DNA of 64,000 nucleotides from Dictyostelium discoideum (taxonomy: Eukaryota), in the NCBI GenBank assembly GCA_000004695.1, contig CM000154.2, forward strand, positions 4,512,001-4,576,000. The letters are read 5' to 3'. The notes beneath the pieces are model-generated. The model did not search any database. It was not told the origin of the DNA and saw only the letters and a list, made by a program, of their open reading frames with translations. The position numbers were made by a program, and so were the translations under genes. Of this stretch, positions 1 through 50,852 are shown piece by piece; position 1 is the stretch's first letter; every line of letters begins with the position of its first letter.

Positions 1-5670
<5,670 letters not shown>

Positions 5671-12288: not shown

Positions 12289-12356
<68 letters not shown>

Positions 12357-16028: not shown

Positions 16029-16080
<52 letters not shown>

Positions 16081-19000
16081 TATATTAGGATTGTTTTGGA
16101 ATTTTTTTAAAACTTCAAAAATGAATTTGAAAAGATTTTCATTTGCTAGACTATTATCATAATATAATTGTTTAAATTGATCATATTCTAATGTTGTTAA
16201 TGATTCTAAATTGATACTTGGACATCTTTTATTAATGTGTTTATAAAATAATGATGGTAATAATCCCTTTGAAATGAATCGATTTCCTTCTTCTTTGACA
16301 CTAAATTCATCTACTCTATATAAATGTTTGAATTGTTCAGGTTTATTGATCATAGAATCTTTTGATTGAAGATATGGTGTATAAATTTCATTTGATGGTG
16401 GTTTACAAATTATAGTACTATCAGGATTGGAGCCAACAATAGTGCAAACTACATTTCCAATATCAACTAATAATGTACCATTTGGAAGTATGATTTTAAT
16501 TGATCCTGAATATGTTTGAGAATTGGTTCTTGCTCTAATTTCAGAGTAAACATATAATTCTTTAATTGTATCATTATTATTGCTATTGTTGTTATTATTA
16601 AATGATGGATAATTTGAAGAGTAAAATTTGAAAGCTTCAATTCTATCAAGTACGATTGGTTGTGTAACTGCAACCAATACTCCATGTAAACAAGTATCTA
16701 AAATTGCTGTATTAAAAAATGTATCCATAATACTATTGTTCAATAAATGATTATATTCTTTTTGATTATAAATTTCATTTAATGATACTATTGTCAATGA
16801 ACAATTACTACCGATATGACATTGTTTTACACCTTGAAATAAACCTTTGTATGTTAAATTTGTTTTAATTCTAATAGTTTCATATAAATCTTGTTTTGAT
16901 ATGCTTGTAAAATTACATTTATCTTTTAATGATTGAATATTAATTGGTTCATTATTTTCAATATTATGTTTGGTTAAACTAAAATTACCAAGAGATGATA
17001 ATATCCATTGATTTGTTTTTTGATCTTTATAATGACTTTTAATATTGAATTCATTCTTTGATAGTGGTGCAATTGTAGTTTGTAAACATTGATTATTACC
17101 TTCTGTTAATACCAATGGTGATTTAAATTCTAATGAGCCAATTGTAATATCTTGATTTGGATAAATTGATAATAAATTGAGAACATATCCCATTCCTGGA
17201 TAATAGAATTTATCACTAACTTGATGACCTTTTAACCATTGGAATGGTAATTTCTTGATATCGATAAATGTTTGATATGATGGATATGGTGAATCTGTAT
17301 TATTACCAAGACTATGAATGGATGGACCTTCATTTTTAATCTTTTCATGAAACGAATTAATTTTAAAGTATTCTTTATCATCCCATTGGTAAAGTGGTAA
17401 ATTATTCAATTGATTTGTATTGTTATTATTGATTAATTGTGATTTGAAATTAATATCAAAATTATTATTGACATATAATAAAGAGATTGTCTTTAAGAAT
17501 TCATTATAATCATTCTTCTTTTTATTTAATGGTGAATAGATTGTAATGTTTTTACCATTATTAAAGTAACTTGATTGAGTTGATTTCATTTGATTTAAGT
17601 AATATTGTAATGTTGGATGTGGTGAAACTTCAATGAATGTAATTTCATTACCCATATCATTTGATTCGATATGTTTGTAAAGATTTGTAATTGTTTGTGT
17701 GAAACGAACTGGTTGGCGAATATTATTAAATACATAATCTGCATTGAATGGTGAGCTTTGATGATTGAATAAATTGGTTGTAACTGTTGAAAATACTGCT
17801 ATCGATGGTTGTTTCGATGAAATATTTAATGAACATACTTCATCTTTAATCATTTGTTGACTTGATGTATGAAATGATGATAATAATCCTAACATTGTAC
17901 AAAAGATATCATTTGATTTGAATTCATTGGTAATTTCATTTAATAAGTCTTCATTACCTGAGATAACGATCGATGTTGGTGAATTGTAACATGCAATTTC
18001 TAATGATTCATATTTAGTTGTAGATTGATATTTATTAATGAATTCATCTGAACTAATATTAACTGATAACATTCTACCTGTACCTATGGTTCTATTTTGA
18101 GCTACTGATCTATGGTAAGTCAAGTAGCATAATGTTTGAAAATCAATTATACCTGAACAATATGACGATGATATTTCACCAAGAGAATGACCAATGATAA
18201 TATCTGCTGAAACACCCCAATGTTTATATAATTCATAAAGTGATACTTGAATGATAACATTTGCAGGTTGTGCTAAAATTGGTTGATGAATTGATATTAA
18301 ATCTTTATCATCAATTGATCTTAATTTATCTAAAACTGAATAACCATAATATTTGAATAACTCTTTATCGAATCTATTGACAGATTCTCTAAATATTGGT
18401 TCATTATCATATAATGACGATGCCATTTTATTATATTGTGAACCTTGACCACATAATACCATTACTGTGATTGGCGATTTCTTTTTTTCAACTGTAATAT
18501 TTGAAATTAAATTATCACTATTTTCTAATTTGATTTGATTATTTTCATCTTGAAATTCATTCCAATCACTTGCGATTATAACTGATTTTTGAATTAATGA
18601 TGTTGATTTGAATTTAATTTGATTATGTACAAATTCTTTAAAACTTGTTGTGGTTGATGATGAATTTGAATGTTTAATTATTGATGATTTATAATTATTT
18701 AATGATGTTGATGAATTACTTGAGAGTGGTATTAAATATTTCTTTTTTTCATTAAATTTATTATCAATTTTGATTTTGTGATAACTATTACTTTTATTAT
18801 AACTAAATTGATTACCATAAAATTCAGATAATATTAAACAAACATTTGAACCTAAATAAAAAACATTATTAAAATATTAATTATTTATTTTATAATAATA
18901 AAATATAATGATATATATTTACCTGTAACACCGAAATTATTAAGTAACATGACAGTTGATTTATTTTCATTAAATTTAATTGGTTCAGTGACAACTTTTA

Positions 19001-20622
19001 ATCCCCATTCTTTAAAATTAATTAATGGATTTGGTTCTTTGAAATTAATATTTTGAAGAAATAGTTTATTTTTAAACATTAAACAACATTTAATTAATGA
19101 TGCAACTCCTGAACATGCTATTATTATTTATTATTATTATTATTATAGATAATATTTAATGTTAGTAGTTAATAATTGACTATAGTTATTTATATTTAAT
19201 TAAATTTAATTAACTTACCTTCAGTATGTCCAATATTTGATTTAATTGATCCAACTAAAACTTGTTTGTTATTATTTATTAATGTAGTTGTTGACGCTTT
19301 ATTATTGAAAACTCTTGATATACCTTCTAATTCTATTGGATCACCAGTTGGAGTACCAGTACCATGAGTTTCACAATAATCAATATCAGATTCATTGATT
19401 TGACCATTGGTTGATTTGATTGCTAATTTGATATTTTCATACTGAGATGATTTTGATGGTGAATAAAAGTTTAATTTATCAAAGTTACCATCGATATTTG
19501 AATTTGATCCTTTGATTACACAATAGATGTTATTTGAATCTTTGATTGCATCTTTTAATTTCTTTAATACAACGATACCAACACCTTCTGAACGAACATA
19601 ACCATCAGCATCCGATGAAAATGTATGACATCTACCTGTTGGACTTAGCATATCTAATTTTGTGAATGATTTTGAAATGTGTGGGTCTTTGAATAAATAA
19701 ATAAAATATCAAATTAATATCTTTTTTTTTTTTTTTTTTTTTTTTTTATCACATACCTAATATAAAATTAACACCACCAACAATTGAAACATTTGATTTA
19801 TTTGATTTAATTGAATTATATCCACAATTAATTGCATTTGACGAACTTGAACAAGCTGTATCAATTGTTAAATTTTCACCTCTATTTTTTAAAATTAATA
19901 TAATAGTTAAAATTATAGTTGTGGTAAAAGAAAAGATAAATCAAAAACATACCTAAAATCAAAGCAATAACCAATTCTATTTGCAATAGAATGAGTTGTG
20001 GAACCAAAAATATTATTTTGAGTTTCCAATGGTGATCTTTGAAGATCATTATAATCAATAGTACTACTACCAATAAATGTACTTGTATTGGTACCACGTA
20101 AACTAATTGGATCAATACCACTATCTTCTAATGCTTCCCATACACCTGTTTGTTGATTTTATTTTAAAAATATAATTAATAAATAAATAAATATAAATAT
20201 CTAAATTTTTTGTGGAAAAGTTCAAAAACACTTAATAAATACATACATTTTAATAATAATCTTTGTTGTGGATCTATTGAACTGACATTATCATTGCTTG
20301 GATTAATTGCAAAGAAGATTGGATCAAATTGTTTCCATTCATCAAGTGGAAGTAAACCAGCAAACTTTGAAACGATTTCACCATTTAAATAATAATTATC
20401 AGACCATCTTTCAGAAGTTGTAACGATTCCATCCAATCCATTCAATAATTCATTAAATAATTGATTTGGTTTTGAAATTGATTCTTTTAAATTACCACTT
20501 GGAAATCTTAAACCAATACCAATCACTGCAACATCACCACTACCATCAACATCATCATAATCATTTCTATCCCTTATTAATTTATTATTATAAGTGCTAT
20601 TATTGTGAATATTTTCTGTCAT
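10863..20622 (-). CDS. Type I reducing polyketide synthase PKS-B, complete (KS-AT-DH-CMeT-ER-KR-ACP-R), 7 exons: complement(join(10863..11383,11493..18851,18923..19117,19219..19686,19757..19881,19953..20145,20247..20622)), about 3078 aa
   Basis: ATG at 20622 (MTENIHNN...), then [17 protein letters not shown] motifs: DTACSSS (exon 3), [14 protein letters not shown] and NIGHTEG (exon 4). AT: GQGSQ and GHSLGE. DH: [11 protein letters not shown]. CMeT: [14 protein letters not shown]: [11 protein letters not shown]: GMDSL. R: [14 protein letters not shown] and YVQSK. All introns are GTATGT/GTAAGT..AG, 71-109 bp. Exon lengths sum to 9237 nt (3079 codons) with consistent phases. The terminal exon 10863..11383 is colinear with PKS-A exon 2. 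Confidence 0.85.
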
Positions 20623-20744
20623 TTTTTTTCTTTTTTTTCTAAATAAAACAATAAACAAAATTATATAAAAAATTTTAAAGTATTTATAATTTTTTTTTTT
20701 TTTTAATCAAGTTAAATTTTCATTTAATTTTTTTTTTTTTTTTA

Positions 20745-27648: not shown

Positions 27649-30600
27649 ATGAATAATTTAGAAATTATAAATTTAATAGATAAAGGTGTTGCAATTGTTG
27701 GGGTGGGGTTTAGAATTCCTTCTGGTAATAATGAAAATTCAATTTGTTCACCAGATGATTTATTTAATAATTTAAAGAATGGTTTTGATGGTGTTAGTAG
27801 TACATCAGAAAGATGGAGTGACAATTTTCATAAATTAGGTGAAATTAGTAGTCCAAATGCAGGTTTATTACCATTTAATGAATGCAAATCATTCGATCCA
27901 TTATTTTTTGGTATTAATCCATCCGATGCTCATCAGATTGATCCTCAACAAAGATTATTATTAAAATGTACATGGGAAGCATTAGAAGATGCATCTATCG
28001 ATCCAATTTCAATTCGTGGTACAAATACTTCAGTTTTCATTGGTTCTTCAAATATTGATTATCAACATATAAATAAACACCAAGACTCAGTTTTAAAAAA
28101 TGTAATAGCACAATCTGCCTATGCTGTTTCAAATAGAATTTCATACTGTTTCGATTTTAATGGTCCATCATTATCAATCGATACTGCATGTTCATCATCA
28201 TTAAATGCAGTTTCTCAAGGTTATCATTCAATATTAAATGGTACTTCCAATATGTCAATTGTTGGTGGTGTAAATTTAATATTAGGTAAGAATTACATTT
28301 AAATATATTATATATAAAATACACTCATTAATTAATTTTTTATTTAAATATTTTACTAGATGTTGGAATGATAAAAGCATATTCGTATTTAAGCATGTTA
28401 AGTAAAACACATGGTAAATGTAAAGCATTTGATGAAAGTGGCGATGGTTTTACACGTGGTGAATGTGCTACTATTGTAGTTTTAAAAAATTTACAAGATG
28501 CAGTTAAAGATGGTAATAGAATTTATTGTGTAATTAATGGCTCAAGTTCAAACGTTGATGGCGGCGGTCATATGGATAAAGTTAACCTTTATTCACCATC
28601 AAAGCAATCACAATTTAATAATATTAATTCAGCATTTAAATCAACCAATGGTAAACTTTCAATTAATGATATTCAATATATCGAAGCACATGGTACTGGT
28701 ACTAAAACAGGCGATCCAATTGAAACTGAAGCAATTTCAATGGCTTTTAAAAATAGAGATAAATCAACACCAATTCTAATTGGTTCAATTAAAAGTAATA
28801 TTGGTCATTGTGAAGCTGGTTCAGGTGTTGCATCATTAATCAAATGTTGTTTAATGTTTAAATATCAATGCTTTTTACCAAATATTCATTTCAAAAATCC
28901 AAATCCATTAATTAAATTCAATGAATGGAATTTAAAAGTTGTAACATCACCAATTCCATTCAACAAAAGAATTAATGAAAAACCAGTTTCAATGATGATT
29001 AATAACTTTGGTGTAACAGGTTCAAATTGTTGTTTACTTATTTCAGAATTTAAAAAACAAGATTATGAATCATATGAAAACAACAACAACAACAAAAGTA
29101 ATCATAAAAATATATTAATACCATTCTCAGCAAATTCATCAAATTCATTAAATCAATACCAATCAAAATTTAAAAATATAATTAATAATCAATTCAATTT
29201 TATTGATTTTACCGCAAATCAAATTTATTCAAAATCAAATTATCTTTATCAAAGATCAGTTGTAATTGCAAGTAATTCAAATGAACTTTTTGAAAAAATT
29301 TTAAATAAAAAACAAATTCAAACTAAAAATTCAATCATTTCGAATATGTCATTCAAAGGAAAGAACCCAATTACAATTTTTGTTTTTTCAGGTCAAGGAT
29401 CACAATATCCTAAAATGGCTTTAGAATTATATAATAATGATGAAATTTTTAAGAAGTCAATTGATTTAATCGATTCAAAATTATCAAAGTACTATGGTTA
29501 TTCAGTATGGGGGAAGTTAACAACGATCAAAGATGATGACTTGACCTCAATACATGATCCAATTTTCGCACAACCAGCACTGTGTATGCTTTCAGTATCA
29601 CTATTTGAAATATATTGCCATTGGGGAGTAAATCCATCATTTATTCTTGGTCATAGTCTTGGTGAAATTTCAGCAGCATATTGTTCTGGAATGATCGATT
29701 TAGATACATTCTGTTATACAGTTTATTACAGATCAATCGCCCAATCTAAAACAAATGGTTGTGGTAGAATGTTATCAATTAATATCAGTGATGAAGAATT
29801 TAAATCAATGTATTCTCAAAAGTATCCACAAATTGAAATTGCGTGTTATAATTCACCTCAATCAATTGTTGTGGCAGGTAATGAATCAATATTAAATGAA
29901 ATTTCGAAAGAATTAAAAGAAAAAGAAATTTTCACTGCAATGTTAGGTTCATTATCATCATTCCATACAAGTAGTCAGCAATGTACAAAAGATAGTATAT
30001 TACAACTAAACATTGAAAGTAATCAACCAAAAGTACCAATATTTTCAACAGTTACAACAAATTTATTTAATGAATCAAATCGATTTAATTCACAATATGT
30101 TTATGATAATATTATCAAACCAGTTAAATTCACACAAACAATTTCAAATATTTATAAACATATCGAATCAAATCAATTAAATAATGATATTGTATTCATT
30201 GAAATTGCACCACATCCAACAATATCATTTTATATTAAGCAAATGGTACCATCAAGTTTAAATGAATCAGTTTCAGTTTATTCAGCACTTCACAAGAAAA
30301 AGAATGATGTCGAAGAGTTTCAACAAACCATTTCAAATTTATATTGTCAAAATGGATATAGTATTAATTTTAAATGTCAATTGGAAAATAAAAAATCAAA
30401 TCAATCAATAAATTTACCACTTTACCAATGGGATGATGAATTATACTTCGCTCAAACTCAAACACTTGAACAATATACAAAAGAAGGACCACCAATCGAT
30501 CATCTTGGTCTATCAAACTCTTATTATTCACCATTTAAAAATTCATATAGAACATTTATTGATATAAATAATAAACCATTCCAATATCTTAAAGGTCATA

Positions 30601-33600
30601 TGGTTAAAGGTAAATACTACTTCCCAGGTTGTGGTTATATCGATATTATTATTCAACTTTATAAAAATCAAGATATTTTTATTAGTTTTATTGAATTTAA
30701 AACACCATTAATTTTAATTGAAGGTATCAATCAATATTTACAAACAAACATTCAACAAACTGGTAAAAGTGAATATCGTGCACAATTTCATTTCAAAGAT
30801 CAAAAATCAAATGAATGGATTCAATCATCAAATGCAAATTTCCAATTATTAGATCATGGTAATGATATACCATCAAATTATAATATTGAAGAAATTATTA
30901 AAAACAAATGTAATTTGAGCAAATTAACAAAGAATGAACTTTATACACAAATAAAATCAAAAACTGGTTTGAATTATACTGGTGTTTTTCAAGGTGCTAC
31001 TGAATGTTATTTAGGTAATGATTGTTCATTATCAGTTTTATCTTTAAAATCTCAAACAAATTCATTTTTAAATATACCAATTTTAGATACATGTTTACAT
31101 GGAATGTTAGTATTAATAAATGATCAAAGTCAAATTGTATTTGATAAAGCCATTGGATTTAAATATTATTCATCAAACATACCATCGGATCTTAAAGAAT
31201 ATAAAGATAGTATTTATGTTTATTCCAATTTAAAACCAAAAAATGCTGATTCATACCATGGATCTATTATAGTAATGTTATCAGATGGTTCAGTTTTATA
31301 TGAAATTCAAGAAGTTATTTTTAAATCATTAATTCCAATCAAACATTCACTTAAAATTGAGTATCCAAATGATGAATTATACAAAGTTCATTTACAATCA
31401 AAAGATTCTCAAATTCCAACGCCATCATCATTCAAATCAATTATTTATGAAAATGATTTCTTCCATTCTGCACTTAATATTCCAGAAGATTTATTCAAAT
31501 ATATTTCAACATTATTTTATAAAGATATTATAAAAAGATGTCCAGAAATTAATATCAATAAAATTAATTCTCATAGTGTTAATGAAATTATTTCAAGTTT
31601 CAGTAAAATTTCAAAAAATCAAAGATTATTTAGATTTGTATTTGAAACAATAAAAGAGAATGGTATTCTTAATAGTTTGGAAGAAAATGATGATGCTTAT
31701 TTCGAATTTAATGAATTAGTTATTAAATCATCAAAAATTATTTCAAAATTATTATTCCCACTAGAAAGTGATAATGATAATGAAGATTTACCTCAATCAT
31801 TATTTCAAAATGGTTTAATGGATAAAATTTATAAATGCAGTTATTTAAGAAAGAAGTATCAAATGATTTCACATGTCATTATACATTCAATTAAAGAGAT
31901 TATTAATAATAATATTATAATTAGAATTTTAGAATTTGGAGGAGGCACTGCGTCATTATCAGTTGAAGTTATTGGAGAAATCGTTGCATTACTTCAAGAG
32001 AATCCAAATTATCAAGTTGAAATCGAATATACATGGAGTGATATTTCACCTGCATTCATAGCAGATGCAAAGAATAAAATCAATAAAATCATTAATGATG
32101 CTGCTATAACAAATGGATTAAATGTTATTTATCGTTCATTAACAATCGATGAATCATTGCTTGAAAATCAAGCAATTAAACCATCATATTATGATTTCGT
32201 TATAATGTCAAATGTTCTTCATGTTGTTAAAAATATTAAACAAGCTGTAGAACAAATGTATCAATTGTTAACACCGAATGGTCAATTGCTATTTATAGAA
32301 CCACCTTATAAATCAGTTCTAATCGATTCAATCATTGGTTCATTTGAACAATGGTGGTCATTCACTGATACTGATATTAGAAAAGATAGATGTGGTATGT
32401 CTCAACAAAGTTGGTATCAATTATTAAAGACATGTAATTTTAAAGACATTTTAATGTCAAAAGAATGCATCTTTGTTGGGTCAGTAATACATGCACAAAA
32501 ACCACCAATTTCTTTATTGAATTCTCAACCAAAACATGATAATATAATTATATATGGTGGTGGTGGTAATTTAAGTTTTGTAGAAAACATCAAATTAGAT
32601 TCAAATTCAAAAAGTTTAATTCAAATTGAAACTATTCAAGAATTTAATCAATTATTAAGTCAATCAACAATTACAAATGATTCAATAATTTATTTCATAA
32701 AAACATTAGAAACATTATCATTGGATAATTATAAACAAATAACTCTTGAATATATTGAAATCAATCAAAGACTATTACAAATCAATAGTTTATGTAAACA
32801 TGTATTAATTGTTAGTGATTCAAGAAAAACTAACTATTTAGCATCATCAGTTGTTGGTGCTGCAAGATACTTTGATGAATTCCAACAATTGAAATTACAC
32901 ACATTAGATTTTGATTATGATTCAACTCAAAATTATATAAATTCAAAAAATAACAAAATGGTTCAATTCATTAATATCTTGGTGGACTCCAAAACAAATG
33001 TTCATAAAGAAATGATTATAATTAATAACAAAGTATATTATGAAATAGTTCAAAAAGAGAAAAATCTAAAACTAAAATACAATTCAGAATCTTTTGAAAA
33101 TCAAAATAATTTAATGTGTTCATTATCACCAAATTTAGAATATCAATTACAATCAAAACAAATTAAATTAAGAGATAATCAAGTTGAAGTTAAAACAATT
33201 GCAACTGGTATCAATTATAAAGATTATTTAAATTTTAGCGGTTCAAATAATAATAATGGTGATGACAATACAGGTTTACCACAATTTGGATATGAATTTT
33301 CAGGTATTATAACAAGAGTTGGTAATAATGTAAAAGATTATAAAGTTGGTGATAATGTATTTGGTTTATCAAATTCTTGTACATCATCCCACATTGTTAC
33401 AAATTTTAAAAATATTCAATTAAAACCTTCAAACATAAGTCATAACGAAGCATCATCAATTCCAATTGATTATTTAACATCATTTATGAGTTTATTTAAT
33501 GTTGGTAGTTTAAATATTGAAGATAATGAATCAATTCTAATTCATTTAGGTAGTGATAGTTTTGGATTATCAACATTTGAAATATTAAAATGGAAAGGTT

Positions 33601-35267
33601 TTAAATCAAATTTATTCGTTACAGTTGATTTGGACGAAACTAAACAATATCTTCTAGATAGATATGGTGATTTTATTACTGGAATTTATTCAAACACAGA
33701 TAAAAGTTATGTTACAGAAATAAAAAACGAATTAATTAAATTAGGTTCAAAAAAGAAAGGAGTAGATTTAATATTAAATACATTACCAAGTGATTTTATG
33801 GATTCAAATTTCGAGTTATTAACAAAGAGTGGTAGAATAATTGATTTAACTTCAAATCATTTAAATCAAAGTGAATTTTTAAAAAATATCAATTTTAAAT
33901 ATAACCATGGTTACCACAACTTTCAGTTATCATTAATTCAAAAAAATAAAATACAAAAATGTTTATATGAAATTTCACATGCTATTGAAAATGGAGAATT
34001 AAAAACTATTCCAATTAAAGAATTTACAAATTTAAATATTAAAGATGCCATCAAATACATTACCAACGGTAACATTGAAAAAATTACAGTTAGTCATGAT
34101 CATGAAATTTATAGTGATATTATTTATAGATCTTTAGATGAAAAAGAGTTTTCAATATTAAAATCAAATTATCAAATTAATTCAAATAATTTAGGTAAAA
34201 ACATATTAATTACAGGTCAATCAGGTATTATTTTAGAAATATTAAAATGGATCATTAAATATTCAAATATTAACACAATTGAAAATGTTATTATTCTTTC
34301 AAGATCATCATTAAAATGGGAATTAGAATTATTAATTAATCAAACTAAACTATCAAATAATAATATTAAATTTCATTTCAAGAGTGTTGATGTCGGTGAT
34401 AGTGAACAAGTTGATAATGCAATCAATGAAATATTAAATGAAAATCAACAAATTACAAATATTGATTCAATATACCATTTTGCATTTCAACAAATTACAT
34501 GTAAAGTTCAAGAAATCAATATGAAACATTTAGATATTTCACATGGAGCAAAATCAATGGGTGCAGTTAATTTACATAATCAATCAATTAAACGTAATTG
34601 GAAATTAATTAATTTTGTTATGGCTTCTTCTGCACTTTCATTAATAGGTTCAACAGATCAATGTACATATGCCTGTGCAAACCTATTATTAGATTCATTT
34701 TCAAAATACAGAGAATCACTTGGATTACCATCTGCTTGTATTAACCTTGGGTCAATTGAATCAACTGGTTTCGTTTCAAAGAATGAATCAATTTCAGAAT
34801 TTACAGATGGCATTGGTTACGTTCCAACACCTATCAATCTAGTTTTAGGTCTTTTAGATTTACAAATTCAAAATGCAGGTAAATTTACGAATTCAATGCT
34901 TTCAAATTTAATATCATCAAAATTTAAAAATATTCAACAAACATCATTATTTCTAAAATTTGATTACTTGATGAATTTAAATGACAACAGTGAACAAACT
35001 AAAAAAGAGAATATTGGAAATAAAAACATTGATGAATTATTCATTGAGAAAGTTTCAGAATTATTTTCAACGGATCAATCAAGAATAAATAAAAATCTTA
35101 GATTAATTGATTATGGCGCAGATTCATTAATAATAGTTCAATTAAAGAATTGGATAGATAAAGAAATTGGTATAAATTTAATAACAATTAAACAACTTCA
35201 AAACAATACAATTAATATTTCAATCAAAATGATATTAAATTCATTAATGAAAAATAATCAAATATAG
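27649..35267 (+). CDS. Type I reducing PKS-C (KS-AT-DH-CMeT-ER*-KR-ACP), 2 exons: join(27649..28285,28360..35267), about 2514 aa; terminal R domain lost
   Basis: ATG at 27649 ([27 protein letters not shown]). KS: [10 protein letters not shown], a 74-bp phase-1 intron after VGGVNLILG, then [14 protein letters not shown] and [12 protein letters not shown]: GQGSQ and GHSLGE. DH: [11 protein letters not shown]. CMeT: [12 protein letters not shown]. Degenerate ER motif: [16 protein letters not shown]: [15 protein letters not shown]. It terminates with ...NSLMKNNQI* at 35267, where PKS-D continues into about 415 aa of R domain. Confidence 0.85.
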
Positions 35268-35639
35268 ATGACAATAATAATACATACAATAGATATTAAC
35301 CCAATGAAAATCAAAACATTACTAGAATTATCAACAGATAATGGGTGATCTTGAAATTTTTTATTTAAATAAGATTCAAATTTTACTTTGCGTTTTTTTT
35401 ATTTAATATTTTTAGATTTGGGTAGTTTTGGACATTATAAAATAAAAAATCTAAATCTAAATAAAATAAAAAATACAAATCTAAATTATTCTTTTTTATA
35501 AAAAAAAAAAAAAAAAAAAAAGTCAAATCAACATAAAAACATCTTCAGACATTATTTTTAAAATTGAATTTATAAAAAAAATTTTATTTATAAAAATAAA
35601 ATTTTTTCTCAATTAATATAGATATTTCAAAACTAAATT

Positions 35640-37120
35640 ATGAATAATTTTAAAAAATATAAATTTAATAGATAAAGGTGTTGCAATTGTTGGGGTGGGG
35701 TTCAGAATTCCTTCTGGTAATTATGAAAATTCAATTAGTTCACCAGATTATTAAATTTAATAATTTAAAGAATGGTTTTGATGGTGTTAGTAGTACATCA
35801 GAAAGATGGAGTGACAATTTTCATAAATTAGGTGAAATTAGTAGTCCAAATGCAGGTTTATTACCATTTAATGAATGCAAATCATTCGATCCATTATTTT
35901 TTGGTATTAATCCATCCGATGCTCATCAGATTGATCCTCAACAAAGATTATTATTAAAATGTACATGGGAAGTATTAGAAGATGCATCTATTGATCCAAT
36001 TTCAATTCGTGGTACAAATACTTCAGTTTTCATTGGTTCTTCAACTATCGATTATCAACTGTTTCGATTTTAATGGTCCATCATTTTCAATGCATGTTCA
36101 TCATCATTAAATGTTGTTTAATGTTTAAATATCAATGCTTTTTACCAAATATTCATTTCAAAAATCCAAATCCATTAATTAAATTCAATGAATGGAATTT
36201 AAAAGTTGTAACATCACCAATTCCATTCAACAAAAGAAATAATGAATTACCAGTTTCAATGATGATTAATAACTTTGGTTTAACAGGTTCAAATTGTTGT
36301 TTACTTTTAACAGAATATAAAAAACAAGATTATGAATCATATGAAACTATCTACAAAAATGATAATAGTAAAAATATATTAATACCATTTTCAGCAAATT
36401 CAACAAATTCATTAAATCAATACCAATCAAAATTTAAAAATATAAATAATAATCAATTCAATTTTATTGATTTTACCGCAAATCAAATTTATTCAAAATC
36501 AAATTATCTTTATCAAAGATCGGTTGTAATCGCAAGTAATTCAAATGAACTTTTTGAAAAAATTTTAAATAAAAAACAAATTCGAAATAAAAATTCAATC
36601 ATCTCAAATATGTCATTCAAAGGAAAGAATCCAATTACAATTTTTGTTTTTTCAGGTCAAGGATCACAATATCCTAAAATGGCTTTAGAATTATATAATA
36701 ATGAAGTAATCTTTAAAAAATCAATTGATTTAATCGATTCAAAATTATCAAAGTACTATGGTTATTCAGTATGGGAGAAGGTAAAAAAAATCAAAGATTA
36801 TGATACTACTTCCATTCATGATCCAACTATTGTACAACCAGCAGTGTGTATGTTTTCAGTATCATTATTTGAATTGTATTGCCATTGGGGAGTAAATCCA
36901 TCATTTATTCTTGGTCATAGTATTGGTGAAATTTCAACATTATATTGTTCTGGAATAATCGATTTAGATACATTTTATCACAGATCAATAGCACAAACTA
37001 AAACACACTGTAATGGTGGGCATCCACTGATATTGATATTAGGAAAAATAGATGTAGTATGTCTCAACAAAGTTGGTATCAATTATTAAATAACAGTAAT
37101 TATAAAGACATTGCAATGTG
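35640..37120 (+). pseudogene. Mosaic PKS pseudogene between PKS-C and PKS-D: promoter and 5' end copy, KS N-terminal fragment, deletion, KS C-terminus plus AT fragment, deletion, short CMeT fragment
   Basis: 35655-35700 duplicates the C and D 5' ends (aaatttaatagataaaggtgttgcaattgttggggtgggg). ORF-track fragments 35678..36073 and 36073..37089 read KS, AT ([22 protein letters not shown]) and a DIRKDRC...QQSW CMeT fragment in shifted frames. There are multiple indels and no intact frame. Confidence 0.8.
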
Positions 37121-37766
37121 CATGCTAAAATTAAAAAGATTCCTTTATTGTATCCAAAAAATAAAAGTGAAAAAAAAAAAAAAAAGAATGGTTTAAAAAA
37201 AAAAAAAAAAGGGTTAAAAATATAATAAATTAATTTTTAATAAATGTTGAGAGAAAGTATTTAAATTTTTTTTTTATTTTATTTTTTATTTTTTTTTTTT
37301 TTCCTATTCTCTGGGATTATAATCTGAAAAAGGGTTTTTTTTTTTTAAACAAATATGGGCTTACTAATAATTTAAATTGGTAAAAAAAAACAGAAAGGAT
37401 GATATATACAAAAAAAAAAATATTTTTTGTCCTTGAATATAATTTTTTCAAATATTATATCATTGTTGTTTTATAATTAATTTGAATTTGTATAATTTTA
37501 TGAATTTTATCTGGTGTGAATCTGCAAAAAATTTTATATTTTTTTTTATTTTTTTATCTGGTGGAAATCTACAAAAAAAACAACAATAAATCTATAGATT
37601 TAAAAAATTAAAAAATCGTCATTATTTTTTTTTTTGGTATGGCTTTCTCTAAACGAATCCCCACGAAAAAAAATTATAAACTTCTAATTTTCTAAGGCCA
37701 CAGTGCTGCACAAAATTACTTTTCACTTTATAGTGCTGAAATTTTTACATCCAACCCCCAAAATTT

Positions 37767-37803
<37 letters not shown>

Positions 37804-38114
37804 CATATGTACAAAAAAATAAATAAAAATAAATAATTTAACAACAAAATGAACACAAAAACAAAATACATTTCTTCAAGTATTATTTTTAAAATAAATC
37901 AAATGTGCTGTTAGTTAATCTCCTGAATAAAAATTTTTTATAAATTTTACCACATAAAGCCTTTAAAAAAAGTTTGTGTTTAATAATTTTAATTAATAAA
38001 ATCATGTAAATAATGAAAGTTTTTTAAAAAAAATATAAATTTAAAACAACAATATTTAATTTTAATAAAAAATTTTCTTCACTAATTTTGATATTTCAAA
38101 ACTACTAAATACCT

Positions 38115-41100
38115 ATGGGTAATTTAAAAAATATAAATTTAAAAGAGAAAGGAGTTGCAATTGTTGGTATTGGATTTAGAATTCCTTCTGGTAATAATGA
38201 AAATTCAATTAGTTCACCAGATGATTTATTTAATAATTTAAAGAATGGTTTTGATGGTGTTAGTAGTACATCAGAAAGATGGAGTGACAATTTTCATAAA
38301 TTAGGTGAAATTAGTAGTCCAAATGCAGGTTTATTACCATTTAAAGAATGGAAATCATTCGACCCATTATTTTTTGGTATTAATCCATCTGAAGCTCCAT
38401 TAATCGATCCTCAACAAAGATTATTATTAAAATGTACATGGGAAGCATTAGAAGATGCATCTATTGATCCAATTTCAATTCGTGGTACAAATACTTCAGT
38501 TTTCATTGGTTCTTCAACTATTGATTATTTACATACAAATAAACATCAAGACTCAGTTTTAAAGAATGCAATAGCACAATCAACCAGTGCGATTTCAAAT
38601 AGAATTTCATACTGTTTCGATTTTAATGGTCCATCACTATCAATTGATACTGCATGTTCATCATCATTAAATGCAGTTTCTCAAGGTTATCATTCAATAT
38701 TAAATGGTACTTCCAATATGTCAATTGTTGGTGGTGTAAATTTAATATTAGGTAAGGATTATTATTTTTTTTTTAAAATTAAAAATACACTTATTAATTA
38801 AAATTTATTTTTATTAGATGTTGATATTATAAAAGCATATTCGATTTTAAGCATGTTAAGTAAAACACATGGTAAATGTAAAACATTTGATGAAAGTGGC
38901 GATGGTTTTACACGTGGTGAATGTGTCGGTGTTGTAGTTTTAAAGAATTTACAAGATGCAGTAAAAGATGGTAATAGAATTTATTGTGTAATTAATGGTT
39001 CAAGTTCAAATGTTGATGGTAATGGTAATATGGATAAAGTTAACTTTTATTCACCATCAAAACAATCACAATTTAATAATATTAATTCAGCATTTAAGTC
39101 AACAAATGACAAACTCTCGATTAATGATATTCAATATATCGAAGCACATGGTACCGGTACTAAAACAGGCGATCCAATTGAAACTGAAGCAATTTCAATG
39201 GCTTTTAAAAATAGAGATAAATCAACACCAATTCTAATTGGTTCAATTAAAAGTAATATTGGTCATTGTGAAGCTGGTTCAGGTGTTGCATCATTAATCA
39301 AATGTTGTTTAATGTTTAAATATCAATGCTTTTTACCAAATATTCATTTCAAAAATCCAAATCCATTAATTAAATTCAATGAATGGAATTTAAAAGTTGT
39401 AACCTCACCAATTCCATTCAACAAAAGAAATAATGAAAAACCAGTTTCAATGATGATTAATAACTTTGGTGTAACAGGTTCAAATTGTTGTTTACTTATT
39501 TCAGAATTTAAAAATAACAATAACTTTAAAGAGAATATTAATTTAGAATCTCAAAGTGTTAATGATAGAGTGTTAATACCATTCTCAGCAAATTCATCAA
39601 ATTCATTAAATCAATACCAATCAAAATTTAAAAATATAATTAATAATCAATTCAATTTTATTGATTTTACCGCAAATCAAATTTATTCAAAATCAAATTT
39701 TCTTTATCAAAGATCAGTTGTAATTGCAAGTAATTCAAATGAACTTTTTGAAAATATCTCAAATAAAAAACAAATTCAAACTAAAAATTCAATCATCTCA
39801 AATATGTCATTCAAAGGAAAGAACCCAATTACAATTTTTGTTTTTTCAGGTCAAGGATCACAATATCCTAAAATGGCTTTAGAATTATATAATAATGAAG
39901 TAATCTTTAAAAAGTCAATTGATTTAATCGATTCAAAATTATCAAAGTACTATGGTTTTTCAGTATGGGAGAAGGTAAAAACAATCAAAGATGATGACTT
40001 AACCTCAATACATGATCCAATTTTTGCCCAACCAGCACTATGTATGATTTCAGTATCACTATTTGAATTATATTACCATTGGGGAGTAAATCCATCATTT
40101 ATTCTTGGTCATAGTCTTGGTGAAATTTCAGCATCATATTGTTCTGGAATGATTGATTTAGATACATTCTGTTATACAGTTTATCAAAGATCAATAGCAC
40201 AATCTAAAACAAATGGTTGTGGTAGAATGTTATCAATTAATATCAGTGATGAAGAATTTAAATCAATGTATTCTCAAAAGTATCCACAAATTGAAATCGC
40301 ATGTTATAATTCACCTCAATCAATTGTTGTGGCAGGTAATGAATCAATATTAAATGAAATTTCAAAAGAATTAAAAGAAAAAGAAATTTTCACCACAATG
40401 TTAGGTTCATTATCATCATTCCATACAAGTAGCCAACAATGTACAAAAGATAGTATATTACAACTAAACATTGAAAGTAATCAACCAAAAGTACCAATAT
40501 TTTCAACAGTTACAACAAATTTATTTAATGAATCAAATCGATTTAATTCACAATATGTTTATGATAATATTATCAAACCAGTTAAATTCACACAAACAAT
40601 TTCAAATATTTATAAACATATCGAATCAAATCAATTAAATAATGAAATTGTATTCATTGAAATTGCACCACATCCAACATTATTATTTTATATTAAACAA
40701 ATGGTACCATCAAGTTTAAATGAATCAGTTTCAGTTTATTCAGCACTTCATAAGAAAAAGAATGATGTCGAAGAGTTTCAACAAACCATTTCAAATTTAT
40801 ATTGTCAAAATGGATATAATATTAATTTTAAATGTCAATTTAATAATAAAAAATCAAATCAATCAATAAATTTACCACTTTACCAATGGGATGAAGAATT
40901 ATATTTCACTCAAGCCCAAACTCTCGAACAACATAGAAAAGAAGGACCACCAATTGACCATCTTGGTACATCAAACTCTTATAATTCACCATTTAATAAT
41001 TCATATAGAACATCAATCGATATAAAGAATAAACCATTTCTATATCTTAAAGGCCATATGGTTAAAGGTAAATACTACTTCCCAGGTTGTGGTTATATTG

Positions 41101-44100
41101 ATAATATTATTCAACTTTATAAAAATCAAGATATTTTTATTAGTTTTATTGAATTTAAAACACCATTAATTTTAATTGAAGGTATCAATCAATATTTACA
41201 AACAAACATTCAACAAACTGGTAAAAGTGAATATCGTGCACAATTTCATTTCAAAGATCAAAAATCAAATGAATGGATTCAATCATCAAATGCAAATTTC
41301 CAATTATTAGATCATGGTAATGATATACCACCAAAGTATAATATTAAAGAAATTATTGAAAACAAATGTAATTTAAGCAAATTAACAAAGAATGAACTTT
41401 ATACACATATAAAATCAAAAACTGGTTTAAATTATACTGGAGTTTTTCAAGGTGTTACTGAATGTTATATAGGTGGTGATTGTACATTATCAGTTGTATC
41501 TTTAGAATCTCAAACAAACTCATTTTTAAATATACCAATATTAGATACTTGTTTACATGGAATGATAGGATTGTCAAATGATCAATGTCAAATTGTATTT
41601 GATAAAGCTATTGGATTTAAATATTATTCATCAAACATACCAGCAAATTTAAAAGATTATAAAGATAGTGTTTATGTTTATTCCCATTTAAAATCAAAAA
41701 GTGTTGATTCATTCTTTGGATCTATAATAGTAATGTTATCAGATGGTTCAGTTTTATATGAAATTGAAGAAGTTGTTTGTAAATCATTAATTCCAATCAA
41801 AGATTCACTTAAAATTGAGTATCCTAATGATGAATTATACAAAGTTCATTTACAATCAAAAGATTCTCCAATTCCAACACCATCATCATTCAAATCAATT
41901 ATTTATGAAAATGATTTCTTCCATTCTGCACTTAATATTCCAGAAGATTTATTCAAATATATTTCAACATTATTTTATAAAGATATTATAAAAAGATGTC
42001 CAGAAATTAATATCAATAAAATTAATTCTCATAGTGTTAATGAAATTATTTCAAGTTTCAGTAAAATTTCAAAACACGAAAGATTATTTAGATTTGTATT
42101 TGAAACAATAAAAGAGAATGGTATTCTTAATAGTTTGGAAGAAAATGATGATGCTTATTTCGAATTTAATGAAGTAATTATCAAATCGTCAAGAATTATT
42201 TCAAAATTATTATTCCCACTAGAAAGTGATAATGATAATGAAGATTTACCTCAATCATTATTTCAAAATGGTTTAATGGATAAAATTTATAAATGCAGAT
42301 ATTTAAGAAAGAAGAATCAAATGATTTCACATGTTATTAAACATTCAATTAAAGAGATTATTAATAATAATATTATAATTAGAATTTTAGAATTTGGAGG
42401 AGGTACTGCATCATTATCAGTTGAAGTTATTGAAGAAATAATTGCATTACTTCAAGAGAATCCAAATTATCAAGTTGAAATCGAATATACATGGAGTGAT
42501 ATTTCACCTGCATTCATAGCAGATGCAAAGAATAAAATCAATAAAATCATTAATGATGCTGCTATAACAAATGGATTTAATGTTATTTATCGTCCATTAA
42601 AAATTGATGAATCATTGATAGAAACTCAATCAATTAATCCATCATATTATGATTTCGTTATAATGTCAAATGTTCTTCATGTTGTTAAAAATATTAAACA
42701 AGCTGTAGAACAAATGTATCAATTGTTGACTCCAAATGGTCAATTACTATTTTTAGAGCCACCTTATAAATCAGTTCTAAATGATTCAATAGTTGGTTCA
42801 TTTGAACAATGGTGGTCATTCACTGATACTGATATTAGAAAAGATAGATGTAGTATGTCTCAACAAAGTTGGTGTCAATTATTAAAGACATGTAATTTTA
42901 AAGACATTGCAATGTCTAAAGAATGCATCTTTGTTGGTATTGTAATACATGCACAAAAACCACCAATTTCTTTATTGAATTCTCAACCAAAACGTGATAA
43001 TATAATTATATATGGTGGTGGTAATCCAATTTTTGTAGAAAACATCAAATTATATTCAAATTCAAAAAGTTTAATTCAAATTGAAACTATTCAAGAATTT
43101 AATCAATTATTAAGTCAATCAACAATAACAAACGATTCAATCATTTATTTCATAAAAACATTAGAAACATTATCATTGGATAATTTTAAACAAATAACTC
43201 TTGAATATATTGAAATCAATCGAAAATTATTACAAATCAATAGTTTATGTAAACATGTATTAATTGTTAGTGATTCAAGAAAAACTAACTATTTAGCATC
43301 ATCAGTTGTTGGTGCAGCAAGATACTTTGATGAATTCCAACAATTGAAACTAAATACTTTAGATTTTGATTATGATTCAACTCAAAATTATATAAATTCA
43401 AATAATAAAGATATGGTTCAATTCATTAATATCTTGACAGATTCCAAAACAAATGTTCATAAAGAAATGATTATAATTAATAATAAAGTATATTATGAAA
43501 TAGTTCAAAAAGAGAAAAATCTAAAATTAAAATACAATTCAGAATCTTTTGAAAATCAAAATAATTTAATGTGTTCATTATCACCAAATTTAGAATATCA
43601 ATTACAATCAAAACAAATTAAATTAAGAGATAATCAAGTTGAAGTTAAAACAATTGCAACTGGTATCAATTATAAAGATTATTTAAATTTTAGTGGTTCA
43701 AATAGCAACGGTGATGACAATACAGGTTTACCACAATTTGGATATGAATTTTCAGGTATTATAACAAGAGTTGGTAATAATGTAAAAGATTATAAAGTTG
43801 GTGATAATGTATTTGGTTTATCAAATTCTTGTACATCATCTCACATTGTTACAAATTATAAAAAAATTCAAATAAAACCTTCAAACCTAAGTCATAACGA
43901 AGCATCATCAATTCCAATTGATTATTTAACATCATTTATGAGTTTATTTAATATTGGTAGTTTAAATATTGAAGATAATGAATCAATTTTAATTCATTTA
44001 GGTAGTGATGGTTTTGGATTATCAACATTTGAAATATTAAAATGGAAAGGTTTTAATTCAAATTTATTCGTTACAGTAAATTCATATGAAACTAAACGAT

Positions 44101-46976
44101 ATCTTCAAGATAATTACGGTGATTTTATTACTGGAATTTATTCAAACACAGATAAAAGTTATGTTACAGAAATAAATAAAAAATTAATTAAATTAGGTTC
44201 AAAAAAGAAAGGAGTAGATTTAATATTAAATACATTACCAAGTGATTTTATGGATTCAAATTTCAAGCTATTAGCAAAGTATGGTAGAATAATTGATTTA
44301 ACGTCAAATCATTTAAATCAAAGTGAATTTTTAAAAAATATCAATTTTAAATATAATCATGGTTACCATAACTTTGAGTTATCATTAATTCAAAAAAATA
44401 AAATTCACAAATGTTTATATGAAATTTCAAATGCTTTTGAAAATGGAGAATTAAAAACCATTCCAATTAAAGAATTTACAAATTTAAATATTAAAGATGC
44501 CATCAAATACATTACCAACAATAAAATTGAAAAAATTACAGTTAGTCATGATCATGAAATTTATAGTGATATTATTTATAGATCTTTAGATGAAAAAGAG
44601 TTTTCAATATTAAAATCAAATTATCAAATTAATTCAAATAATTTAGGTAAAAACATATTAGTCACAGGTCAATCAGGTATTATTTTAGAAATATTAAAAT
44701 GGATCATTAAATATTCAAATATTAATACAATTGAAAATGTTATTATTCTTTCAAGATCATCATTAAAATGGGAATTAGAATTATTAATTAACGAAACTAA
44801 ACTATCAAATAATAATATTAAATTTCATTTCAAGAGTGTTGATATCGGTGATAGTGAACAAGTTGATAATGCAATCAATGAAATATTAAATGAAAACCAA
44901 CAAATTACAAATATTGATTCAATATACCATTTTGCATTTCAACAAATTACATGTAAAGTTCAAGAAATCAATATGAAACATTTAGATATTTCACATGGAG
45001 CAAAATCAATGGGAGCAATTAATTTACATAATCAATCAATTAAACGTAATTGGAAATTAATTAATTTTGTTATGGCTTCATCTGCAATTTCATTAATAGG
45101 TTCAACTGATTTATGTACATATGTTTGTGCAAATGCATTATTAGATTCATTTTCAAAATACAGAGAATCACTTGGATTACCATCAACTTGCATTTGCCTT
45201 GGTGCAATTGAATCAACTGGTTTCGTTTCAAAGAATGAATCAGTTTCAGTATTTTTAGACGGTGGTGGTTTCCATCCAACACCAATCAATCAAGTTTTAG
45301 GCCTTTTAGATTTACAAATTCAAAATGCTGGTAAATTCACAAATTCAATGCTTTCAAATTTCAAACCCTCAAAATTTAAAAATAATCAACAAACATCATT
45401 ATTTTTAAAATTTGATTACTTGATGAATTTAAAAAACAATAGCGAAGAAACCAAAATAGAGAATACTGGAAATAAGAACATTGATGAATTATTCATTGAG
45501 AAAGTTTCAGAATTATTTTCAATGGATGAATCAAAGATAAATAAAAATCTTAGATTAATCGATTATGGTGCAGATTCACTAATAATAGTTCAATTAAAAA
45601 ATTGGATAGATAAAGAAATTGGTATAAATTTAATAACAATTCAACAACTTCAAAACAATACAATTAGCACTTCAATGAAAATGATATTAAATTCATTAAT
45701 GAAAAATAATCAAAATATAGATGACAATAATAAAGACCTACCTTCAAATAGAATCGATTATTGGAAGAATGAAATGAAATTTGAAGAGTCTATTAAACCA
45801 ATATCAAATGAAATACAATCAAGGAATAATTCAGAAAAAATTATTTTATTAACCGGTACAACTGGTTTTTTAGGTGGTTTCTTATTATTCAATATGGTAA
45901 GATTAGATTCATGTAAATTAATTTATTGTTTAATTAGAAATAAAAGTAAATCAAATAATCCATTAGATGAAATTATAAATAATTTAAAATATCATCAACT
46001 TTATGAAAAATTAAATCAATCACAAATTTCAAAGATTATACCAATTATTGGTGATTTATCAATGAATAAACTTGGTCTTTCAAATGATGATTATGAAACA
46101 ATTTCAAAAAATGTAAATTTAATAATCAATCCAGGTGCAGATATTAATCAAAAATCAAGTTACCAAGATTGTAAATTAGTAAATGTAAATGGAGTAAAAG
46201 AAATTATTAAATTATCATTATCATCATTAAAACAAAGGATACCAATTGTAAACTTTTCATCATTTTCAGTATTTTTCAATCAATCACTTGATAAGAATTT
46301 TGATGAATCAGTTTTACCATCAATTGATAATATTGATAATTTACCAACAGAATATATGAAGAGTAAAGTTGTTGGTGAATATATTTTATTGGAAGCTTCT
46401 AAAAAATATAATATACCATCAATTTTAATTAGACCACCAAGTATATTTTTAAATCCAGAAACAGGTATTGGTCATATTAGTGACTTCTCTTTATTATCAA
46501 TCCAATCATGTTATGAATTAGGTTATTATCCAAATCAATTTGAAAATGATTTTATTTTAATTAATACAATTACATGGTTATCAAATAATATTACAAATAT
46601 TATAATGAATGATAATTGTTGGACAGATTCAAAAATGAATATTTATAATGTACATGGTAAACAAATTCAATCAAGTTTAATAATTAAACCACTTGAAAAA
46701 CATTTCAATTGTAAACATATCAATACTAATGATTGGATTGATATGGTAAATAATTCAAATAAAAAATCATGTATTAAATTAAAATCATTCCATTCTTTGG
46801 ATATAATTTTAAAAAGTGAAAACAATAGATATAAACCCAATGAAAATCAAAGCATATCATTATCAACCAAATCATTACTAGAATCAATGGGCTCATACAA
46901 CACTGATCTTGAAATCACTGATAAAATGATTATTTCTCATATTAATCAAATTTTTAATTTAAATGAAACAATTTAA
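38115..46976 (+). CDS. Type I reducing PKS-D, complete (KS-AT-DH-CMeT-ER*-KR-ACP-R), 2 exons: join(38115..38751,38818..46976), about 2931 aa
   Basis: ATG at 38115 ([27 protein letters not shown]). A 66-bp intron follows VGGVNLILG (GTAAGG..TAG). The rest is one open frame to TAA at 46974-46976 (...NLNETI*). The terminal reductase is contiguous, with no intron. Confidence 0.88.
39140..39290 (+). other. PKS-D KS domain C-terminal catalytic motifs (HGTGT at about 39147, NIGH about 39255)
   Basis: [14 protein letters not shown] and [14 protein letters not shown] read in the PKS-D frame. The active-site Cys (DTACSSS) is in exon 1 at about 38650. Confidence 0.8.
39840..40130 (+). other. PKS-D acyltransferase domain core (GQGSQ about 39846, GHSLGE about 40108)
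   Basis: [13 protein letters not shown] and [16 protein letters not shown]. Confidence 0.8.
42385..42425 (+). other. PKS-D C-methyltransferase SAM-binding motif I ([12 protein letters not shown])
   Basis: LExGxGxG-type motif between DH and ER, followed by the [11 protein letters not shown] post-I motif. Confidence 0.75.
43985..44040 (+). other. PKS-D ER-domain nucleotide-binding position, degenerate ([13 protein letters not shown] instead of HSAAGGIG)
   Basis: Direct comparison with PKS-A (about 2360-2400, [13 protein letters not shown]) and PKS-B (about 14050-14100, same intact motif). Confidence 0.75.
45556..45600 (+). other. PKS-D ACP phosphopantetheine attachment site ([15 protein letters not shown])
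   Basis: DSL serine motif about 50 aa before the Asn/Asp-rich linker. Confidence 0.8.
45840..46976 (+). other. PKS-D C-terminal SDR-type thioester reductase (R) domain
   Basis: [16 protein letters not shown] (TGxxGFLG NAD(P)-binding, about 45843-45890) and [10 protein letters not shown] (YxxxK, about 46353-46385). Confidence 0.75.
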
Positions 46977-48064: not shown

Positions 48065-48098
<34 letters not shown>

Positions 48099-50796: not shown

Positions 50797-50823
50797 TGTT
50801 TTGTTTTGTTTTGTTTTGTTTTG

Positions 50824-50852
<29 letters not shown>
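50797..50852. repeat. (GTTTT)n about 11 copies, immediately before the assembly gap
   Basis: gttttgttttgttttg... Confidence 0.85.

Follow-up and report, generated by a model that had tools for sequence, protein, structure and literature searches.

Whether every polyketide synthase (PKS) in a run of neighbouring genes can reduce the double bonds that it makes is the question raised by a 64,000-nucleotide stretch of Dictyostelium discoideum DNA (assembly GCA_000004695.1, contig CM000154.2, positions 4,512,001 to 4,576,000 of the forward strand). This whole 64-kb stretch, which has a G+C content of 22%, is called the window here, and its own coordinates are used throughout. It contains several very long PKS reading frames, each interrupted by short GT-AG introns, among them those of four synthases, PKS-A to PKS-D. 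Pfam analysis gave for B, C, D and (in part) A the single-module order KS-AT-DH-(cMT)-ER-KR-ACP (ketosynthase, acyltransferase, dehydratase, C-methyltransferase, enoylreductase, ketoreductase and acyl carrier protein) on one polypeptide, as in iterative type I highly reducing PKSs (HR-PKSs) resembling mFAS. A sequence-only reading of the window had held that the glycine motif of the ER is intact in PKS-A and PKS-B and degenerate in PKS-C and PKS-D; six-frame translation agrees, with coordinates within a few bases. It is very probable that the ER domains of PKS-C (pks8/35) and PKS-D (pks9/36) are catalytically inactive, that the domain is kept as a scaffold and that the products are conjugated polyenes, as they are for the paralogue PKS5.

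Identity of PKS-C and PKS-D

The two genes were identified by exact-sequence lookup of the spliced models. PKS-C (27649..35267, plus strand, 2514 amino acids) matches exactly the AX4 protein "Probable polyketide synthase" 8/35 (DDB_G0271618/DDB_G0295667), and PKS-D (38115..46976, plus strand, 2931 amino acids) matches 9/36 (DDB_G0271530/DDB_G0295659); the AX4 records map both to chromosome 2. A word-indexed protein search with the ER of PKS-D returned just five distant fragments, with no AX4 PKS among them. In the splice models the exons of PKS-C (27649-28285 and 28360-35267, including the stop codon; plus strand) flank an intron at 28286-28359, and those of PKS-D (38115-38751 and 38818-46976, including the stop codon; plus strand) flank one at 38752-38817. 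From Pfam, the domain order of PKS-C is KS-AT-DH-cMT-ER0-KR-ACP, without a terminal reductase, and that of PKS-D is KS-AT-DH-cMT-ER0-KR-ACP-R, where R is a thioester reductase and ER0 an ER predicted to be dead.

Cofactor elements of the enoylreductase domains

The predicted ER0 domains lie at 33129..34136 in PKS-C (plus strand; ADH_N 36.5 bits, ADH_zinc_N_2 24.3 bits) and at 43584..44588 in PKS-D (plus strand; 36.2 and 23.6 bits). A competent ER of the medium-chain dehydrogenase/reductase (MDR) type has an H-x-x-x-G-G-x-G loop, a T-(A/V)-G-S-x-x-K segment and an (H)-I-G-K-(I/V)-V element. PKS-C and PKS-D fail in all three, two more than the loop that the sequence-only reading had named, and A and B have the loop. 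Positions of the motifs were taken from the six-frame translation of the window. The canonical loop of A (2352-2408, plus strand) reads HSAAGGIG, and that of B (14085-14029, minus strand) has the same sequence; the dinucleotide-binding loop is degenerate in C (HLGSDSFG; 33534-33590, plus strand) and in D (HLGSDGFG; 43986-44042, plus strand). After the second Rossmann strand, the canonical TVGSxxK is replaced by TVDLDETK in C (33621-33644, plus strand) and TVNSYETK in D (44073-44096, plus strand). Close to the C-terminus the canonical HIGKIVV has become NIEKITV in C (34071-34091, plus strand) and KIEKITV in D (44523-44543, plus strand). At these two places A and B read TVGSKDK and TVSSKDK, respectively, and HIGKIIV (at 2439 and 2898 in A).

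The loop glycine replaced by Asp in C and D is presumably the one that packs against the pyrophosphate in the Rossmann fold, and the TVGSxxK segment is taken to provide the contacts to the 2'-phosphate of NADPH. On textbook knowledge of the Rossmann fold, an acidic residue in place of the pyrophosphate-packing glycine should not be compatible with binding of NADPH.

Pfam comparison of the four ERs divides them in the same way. The ADH_zinc_N_2 Rossmann model, with a cut-off of 27 bits, scored 42.6 bits in A and 43.2 bits in B (about 43 bits) against the 24.3 and 23.6 bits (about 24) of C and D. The KR, the other NADPH-dependent domain and so an internal control, scored 83 to 89 bits in all four synthases, and the GroES-like ADH_N match of C and D (approximately 36 bits) is above its cut-off.

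The rarity of the substitutions was gauged with an exhaustive HMMER search, in which the ER of PKS-D was compared with 1.84 billion representative sequences and matched 5872 proteins at E ≤ 1e-10. Residues were counted in 195 ER domains taken from the 150 top-ranked of these 5872 proteins. The His before the loop, which C and D share, is His in 193/195 domains, and the last loop glycine, also retained, is Gly in 192/195. The first loop glycine, Asp in C and D, is Gly in 184/195 and Asp once. The second (Ser in C, Gly in D) is Gly in 187/195, and the next position, Phe in both, is Val in 174/194. Outside the loop, the residue following TV after the second strand (Asp in C, Asn in D) is Gly or Ser in 181/189, the canonical Lys of G-S-x-x-K (Thr in both) is Lys in 118/181, and the middle residue of the C-terminal I-x-K (Glu in both) is Gly in 97/100. 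Judged by these counts, the loop difference of C and D is no chance variant.

The ERs of C and D still match active solved ERs in a sequence search of the PDB (E = 1.6e-57 to 2e-15), which also found the ERs of FAS and MAS. Alignment to solved ERs showed all three cofactor elements to be canonical in Pks16 (PDB 9NJU) and the loop to be canonical in CurK and JamJ. An AlphaFold 2 (AF2) model of the ER of PKS-D, made from an 8-row alignment, was too poor for analysis of the pocket (mean predicted local distance difference test, pLDDT, 50.8; Rossmann core 67-83). In this low-confidence model ILIH forms a strand and LGSDG a loop followed by a helix, the classic arrangement of a dinucleotide-binding turn.

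A characterised paralogue with the same motif

In a D. discoideum assembly the neighbourhood of pks6 and pks7 shows a tandem array of a PKS of 2512 amino acids followed by pks6, pks7 and pks8. The spliced 2512-residue gene clusters with AX4 "Probable polyketide synthase 5" (DDB_G0271520, Q86JI5), and the 90%-identity cluster of PKS-D also holds pks6 and pks7. At the nucleotide level pks5 is 88.4% identical to pks7, 87.9% to PKS-C and 87.8% to PKS-D (87.8 to 88.4% to pks6-9 overall), while pks6-9 are 94.4 to 95.0% identical to one another. The value computed here for pks5 and pks7 agrees with the approximately 88% reported previously (PMC9618038). In a neighbour-joining tree of 28 dictyostelid PKSs (1109 ungapped columns, 200 bootstraps), pks5-9 form a clade in 200/200 replicates.

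The AX4 PKS5 loop, LGSDSFG, is letter-for-letter that of PKS-C and is followed by FVTVNSDEIKQYL and then by RIDKIVV; its second element reads TVNSDEIK. PKS5 has been shown by knock-out and overexpression to make dictyodenes, polyunsaturated acids whose C18 chain carries seven conjugated double bonds, one C-methyl and a 17-hydroxyl group (m/z 301.1795 [M+H]+; PMC9618038). By our arithmetic this mass fits C19H24O3 (calculated 301.1798), with eight unsaturations, namely seven C=C and the C=O of the carboxyl. With seven C=C in C19H24O3, every one of the seven enoyl intermediates has stayed unreduced, and the ER of PKS5 thus acts in no cycle. As PKS5, with the identical LGSDSFG motif and in the same clade, makes this unreduced yellow polyene, the ERs of C and D are judged to be almost certainly dead, and the earlier proposal that they leave double bonds in place is strengthened. 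The only characterised carrier of the LGSDxFG variant is PKS5 itself, a polyene synthase, so that the refuting condition named by the sequence-only reading (an active characterised carrier) turns out in favour of an inactive ER.

The published domain map of PKS5 lists an ER, and its inactivity is not discussed there (PMC9618038). Neither the accessible text of PMC9618038, PMC12625978 and PMC12828403 nor the supplements of PMC12828403 say explicitly that DdPKS5-9 have inactive ERs, and a literature search found nothing published on pks8 or pks9.

PKS5 is among the known systems nearest to both synthases. It shares with C and D a tandem array, a fully supported clade, approximately 88% nucleotide identity and degenerate TVNSDE-x-K and I-D/E-K elements, and with C it also shares the KS-AT-DH-cMT-ER-KR-ACP architecture and the LGSDSFG loop. 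The differences are that PKS5 has been characterised, that D (pks9) has an extra C-terminal thioester reductase and that the ER of pks9 is just 74.5% identical to that of PKS5; chain length and methylation programme may differ as well. Knock-out of pks7, an equally close paralogue, led to loss of only a few, different features (PMC12625978).

Across the array the loop reads HLGRDGFG in pks6, HLGSDGFG in pks7, HLSSDGFG in pks8/9 of wild strains and HLGSDGFG or HLGNDGFG in wild PKS5. It drifts in this way among proteins that are otherwise 86 to 93% identical (in the pairs measured), as would be expected of an unconstrained former active site. PKS5 of three wild or related strains (P0177, P0179 and P0180) has GSDG or GNDG in the loop in place of the GSDS of AX4 (P0178), so that within the species the site that once bound the cofactor is polymorphic. 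In the same three strains the C-terminal element is RIGKIVV, as against RIDKIVV in AX4.

Selection on the domain and timing of the loss

Apart from the ER, the catalytic domains of C and D are conserved. Both synthases keep the motifs of the KS (Cys-His-His), AT (GHSxG), DH (HxxxGxxxxP) and ACP (DSL, as GADSL), and (I/V)TGQSG is also present. By the state of these motifs and the gene-wide selection given below, C and D are functional genes in which a single domain is specifically damaged.

That domain is still under purifying selection. Between C and D the ratio of non-synonymous to synonymous substitution rates (dN/dS) is 0.45 in the ER, compared with 0.37 gene-wide; the ER value rests on 15 synonymous and 29 non-synonymous differences, and so slight an elevation from such small counts is by itself uninformative on catalysis. 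When pks9 is compared with pks5, no catalytic domain is less conserved than the ER (74.5% identity, compared with 86.9% for KS, 91.2% for AT and 89.2% for KR). The ratio of ER identity to the average identity of the other domains was 0.80 to 0.94 in the three closest pairs with an ER0 member and 1.01 to 1.14 in pairs in which both ERs are canonical. The separation is not clean, since values of 1.00 and 1.03 were obtained when pks9 was paired with two more distant proteins that have a canonical ER. The pattern fits loss of catalytic constraint with retention of structural constraint.

The sister of the pks5-9 clade (200/200) is RB653_009810 of D. firmibasis (P0006), which has the canonical elements HSASGGIG, TVGSDEK and HIGKIVV. 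This nearest non-discoideum relative shows 63% full-length identity to PKS-D and carries a reductase domain. The loss of the ER may be very recent, or the D. firmibasis gene may be a paralogue that has been lost from D. discoideum; PKS5 of D. cf. discoideum already carries the lesion.

A second group with damaged loops, pks10 and its D. cf. discoideum relative, stands apart in the tree (200/200), and its loops are wrecked differently. In pks10 (DDB_G0271662, P0164) an Asn-rich stretch occupies the place of the glycine loop and looks, from its composition, like a typical Dictyostelium homopolymer expansion in a former active site. The Asn-rich loop agrees with the published AlphaFold 3 result that places no NADPH on the Pks10 ER. 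A single ancestral loss in pks10 and pks5-9 was considered and rejected, as the two were grouped without the canonical D. firmibasis gene in 0/200 bootstraps. On the simplest reading of the tree, the ER was lost in pks5-9 in a separate event from that in pks10 and before the pks5-9 genes multiplied. Degenerate ER loops also occur in D. purpureum (DICPUDRAFT_54214, HSSTNDFG), Tieghemostelium lacteum, Heterostelium album and Polysphondylium violaceum.

Proposed biosynthetic scheme

PKS-C and PKS-D would be iterative type I PKSs built like the animal fatty acid synthase. In each cycle KS, AT, KR and DH would act, with cMT acting occasionally, and the α,β-double bond would stay, as an ER that has lost its NADPH site would leave the enoyl intermediate unreduced. 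The ER dimer may be retained as a structural element that holds the modifying region together and aids docking of the ACP. Models of DdPKSs have the ER dimer shaping the reaction chamber and ER residues assisting DH/ACP docking, with heterogeneous binding of NADPH to the ERs (PMC12828403).

The products of C and D would then be conjugated polyenes like the dictyodenes, known from the literature for their paralogue PKS5; both this behaviour and the release chemistry are extrapolated from it and from domain content. By analogy with PKS5, PKS-C, which has no release domain, would give a polyenoic acid, either free or conjugated, and the terminal thioester reductase of PKS-D would release a polyene aldehyde or alcohol. 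That domain (NAD_binding_4; 45849..46565, plus strand; Pfam 176.9 bits) has its TGTTGFLG motif intact at residue 2558. A C-terminal NAD_binding_4 reductase was found by Pfam in A, B and D and not in C. PKS-D has this R domain and PKS-C ends shortly after its ACP, so the two are not equivalent. PKS-A and PKS-B, which belong to another PKS subfamily whose ER is canonical, would make saturated or mostly saturated chains. In place of the two structurally distinct polyketides suggested earlier, at least three product types are therefore predicted for the window.

Several points weigh against an inactive ER in C and D. The argument leans on a paralogue, PKS5, with 86% protein identity over shared ungapped columns and only 74.5% in the ER. 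The last loop glycine, the flanking His and the signature of the MDR fold (ADH_N above cut-off) are retained, making residual or non-canonical cofactor binding possible. In an AlphaFold 3 survey, Pks10 is the only one named as 'not predicted to bind' NADPH, with the other ERs doing so through 'diverse modalities' (PMC12828403). Expression data for pks8 or pks9 were looked for and none were found.

Alternative explanations

The ER of C and D might still be active by way of a non-canonical cofactor site, perhaps in some cycles only or with NADH, so that programming is altered and reduction kept. Purifying selection on the domain (dN/dS 0.45), conservation of the last loop Gly, the His and the GroES-like subdomain, and AlphaFold 3 models that put NADPH on most DdPKS ERs 'through diverse modalities' (PMC12828403) all agree with this. 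However, a role as scaffold accounts equally well for the purifying selection, and three independent cofactor elements have changed, including the loop Gly that is now an acidic Asp. The loop moreover drifts in near-identical copies (GSDS, GSDG, GRDG, SSDG, GNDG), and PKS5, with the same motif, carries out no reduction in any cycle. An active ER in C and D is therefore highly improbable. General decay would be another way to arrive at a degenerate ER, with C, D or both being decaying duplicates, effectively pseudogenes, whose ER has no implication for any product. PKS debris does lie nearby (6185-10250 and 35560-37121), the reductase domain of C seems to have been lost by rearrangement and the tandem expansion is very recent (94 to 95% identity). 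Yet the frames of 2514 and 2931 codons are uninterrupted, each with a single clean GT-AG intron; every catalytic motif outside the ER is intact, gene-wide dN/dS is 0.37 and other D. discoideum strains have intact orthologues. The demonstrably functional PKS5 also has the same ER state. General decay is likewise highly improbable.

The sequence-only reading had itself drawn an analogy with lovastatin-type PKSs, in which the cis-ER is dead and a separate trans-acting enoylreductase reduces chosen intermediates (as LovC does for LovB), giving partly reduced products. An inactive-looking cis-ER is the precondition of such a system, trans-ERs are widespread among fungal HR-PKSs (PMC7870829) and our search covered the 64-kb window rather than the whole genome. 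In that window, however, tblastn searches whose queries were an ER domain and a stand-alone MDR protein found only the four in-cis ER domains. The neighbouring genes encode an NDH2-type flavoprotein, a P450 fragment and an eIF2B subunit, with no MDR reductase among them, and overexpression of pks5 in D. discoideum gave heptaenes with no reduced position (PMC9618038). A trans-ER is thus very unlikely to complement C and D, and the lovastatin analogy gives way to the closer one of the scaffold ER0 in LpaA and PPS1. An inactive ER retained as scaffold, with polyene products, is the reading that we prefer.

Comparison with other systems

LpaA and PPS1, from basidiomycetes (KS-AT-DH-MT-ER0-KR-ACP-TE, where TE is a thioesterase), are likewise single iterative HR-PKSs that keep an inactive ER, read as structural (PMC7473843). 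Their products are methyl-branched conjugated polyene acids, which are pigments (PMC7473843). The likeness has limits: LpaA and PPS1 are fungal, with no specific relationship to C and D, and release by TE contrasts with the absence of a release domain in C and the reductase in D. Inactivity was also argued there from loss of a proton-donor Lys (the mFAS K1771 position) and not from the glycine loop. That criterion, used for LpaA, was tried and set aside as non-discriminating, as the column contains Phe (95), Ala (44) or Tyr (27) in 191 related ERs, active ones included; in the window it is Tyr in A and B and Phe in C and D.

LovB similarly keeps an inactive ER dimer of the MDR fold (psiER) in an HR-PKS for architecture (PMC7870829). 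Unlike C and D, for which no trans-ER was seen in the window and whose paralogue PKS5 has an unreduced product, LovB needs a dedicated one, LovC, and its product is selectively reduced. The LovB psiER is too diverged to be matched by the ERs of the window in the PDB sequence search, whereas the ERs of C and D still match active ones.

The closest solved structure is that of Pks16 (PDB 9NJU), D. discoideum's main fatty acid synthase (E = 1.6e-57 for D, 3.1e-64 for A), which has the same overall architecture. Pks16 makes saturated fatty acids and has canonical HSATGGVG, TVGSKEK and HIGKIVV elements. A and B resemble it there and C and D do not. Retention of an ER0 as scaffold in a polyene-forming HR-PKS is a principle already established, and C and D are annotated orphan genes that join this known class, of which PKS5, with its product already solved, is the founding member in D. 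discoideum.

Other features of the window

PKS-A (3..5667, plus strand; last intron at approximately 5052-5154) is truncated by the start of the window to cMT-ER-KR-ACP-R. Its full-length paralogue PKS-B (10866..20706, minus strand; KS-AT-DH-cMT-ER-KR-ACP-R) looks intact, as its seven segments, with gaps of intron size (50 to 110 nucleotides) between them, line up in order along a full-length PKS. Both have a canonical ER. A and B are approximately 96% identical in the ER and only 44 to 53% identical to C and D. The KS region of PKS-B (18870-20532, minus strand) is divided into five short exons by intron-like gaps of approximately 50 to 100 nucleotides, with putative splice sites, whereas pks8 and pks9 have one intron in the KS; intron density thus differs markedly between the two PKS subfamilies.

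Between A and B lies a PKS remnant (6185-10250, plus strand) with the C-terminal part of a KS, AT and DH pieces and then the end of a KR and an ACP. What corresponds to residues ~1155-2165 (cMT, ER and most of KR) has been lost by deletion, and this probable pseudogene also lacks the N-terminus of the KS and a reductase domain. A pseudogene remnant, which is a third and shredded pks6-9-type copy (35560..37121, plus strand), separates C and D and consists of a KS N-terminal piece, KS-AT linker/AT and a short pre-ER piece with frame breaks, which align to residues 4-138, 372-681 and 1544-1579 of D at 72 to 94% identity. Homology between C and D ends at 35280, just beyond the stop codon of C, and wild-strain pks8 extends approximately 11 residues further into the linker. 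The shredded copy starts approximately 300 nucleotides past the end of the C-D homology, which suggests the rearrangement that took out the reductase domain of C. The co-functional cluster envisaged by the sequence-only reading is not borne out; the locus is instead a tandem set of recent paralogues with pseudogene debris, beside an unrelated PKS pair.

Identity of 99.7% to the pks7-pks8 intergenic region of GCA_054883475.1 (locus L002) begins only at approximately position 25519 of the window. Before it, PKS-B, the P450 fragment and other sequence stand where pks7 would be. This break in synteny fits a window that is the second copy (pks35/pks36) of the known chromosome-2 duplication of AX4, with the junction close by.

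The open reading frame (ORF) at 23121-24038 (minus strand), between the two PKS pairs, aligns to no more than positions 41-327 of a cytochrome P450 profile that is 462 positions long (68.8 bits). From this partial match it could be an exon of a multi-exon gene or a fragment, and is a candidate tailoring enzyme. Directly downstream of pks9, on the opposite strand (47095-48480, minus strand), is a type II NADH dehydrogenase-like flavoprotein (Pyr_redox_2 and NDH2_C), which is not an MDR enoylreductase; its exact product was absent from the contig index searched. The end of the PKS array is marked by a housekeeping gene, the ORF at 57449-59140 (plus strand; IF-2B family, 261 bits), for an eIF-2B subunit. 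The large ORFs at 50801-53731 (976 amino acids) and 25600-26835 (411 amino acids) had no Pfam match.

Implications for social amoeba polyketides

D. discoideum has approximately 40 PKS genes and, to our knowledge, nearly all are without an assigned product. The dead ER shared by pks6, pks7, pks8/35 and pks9/36 leads to a concrete prediction for four orphan enzymes, namely that they make conjugated polyenes, with reductive release in pks6 and pks9. It also bears on the observation that pks5 knock-outs lose 'most', not all, of their yellow colour, which would be explained only if the paralogues pks6-9 contribute. More tentatively, loss of the ER may be a recurrent route of PKS diversification in social amoebae. 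The pks5-9 genes would in that case be a young, expanding family of ER0 polyene synthases that differ in programming and in how the chain is released (as an acid, or as an aldehyde or alcohol). Together they could yield several related polyenes that act as signals or pigments around spore dormancy, the dictyodenes being the only ones known so far. As near-identical ER0 synthases with and without a reductase, pks5-9 form a natural series in which the programming of chain length and release can be studied.

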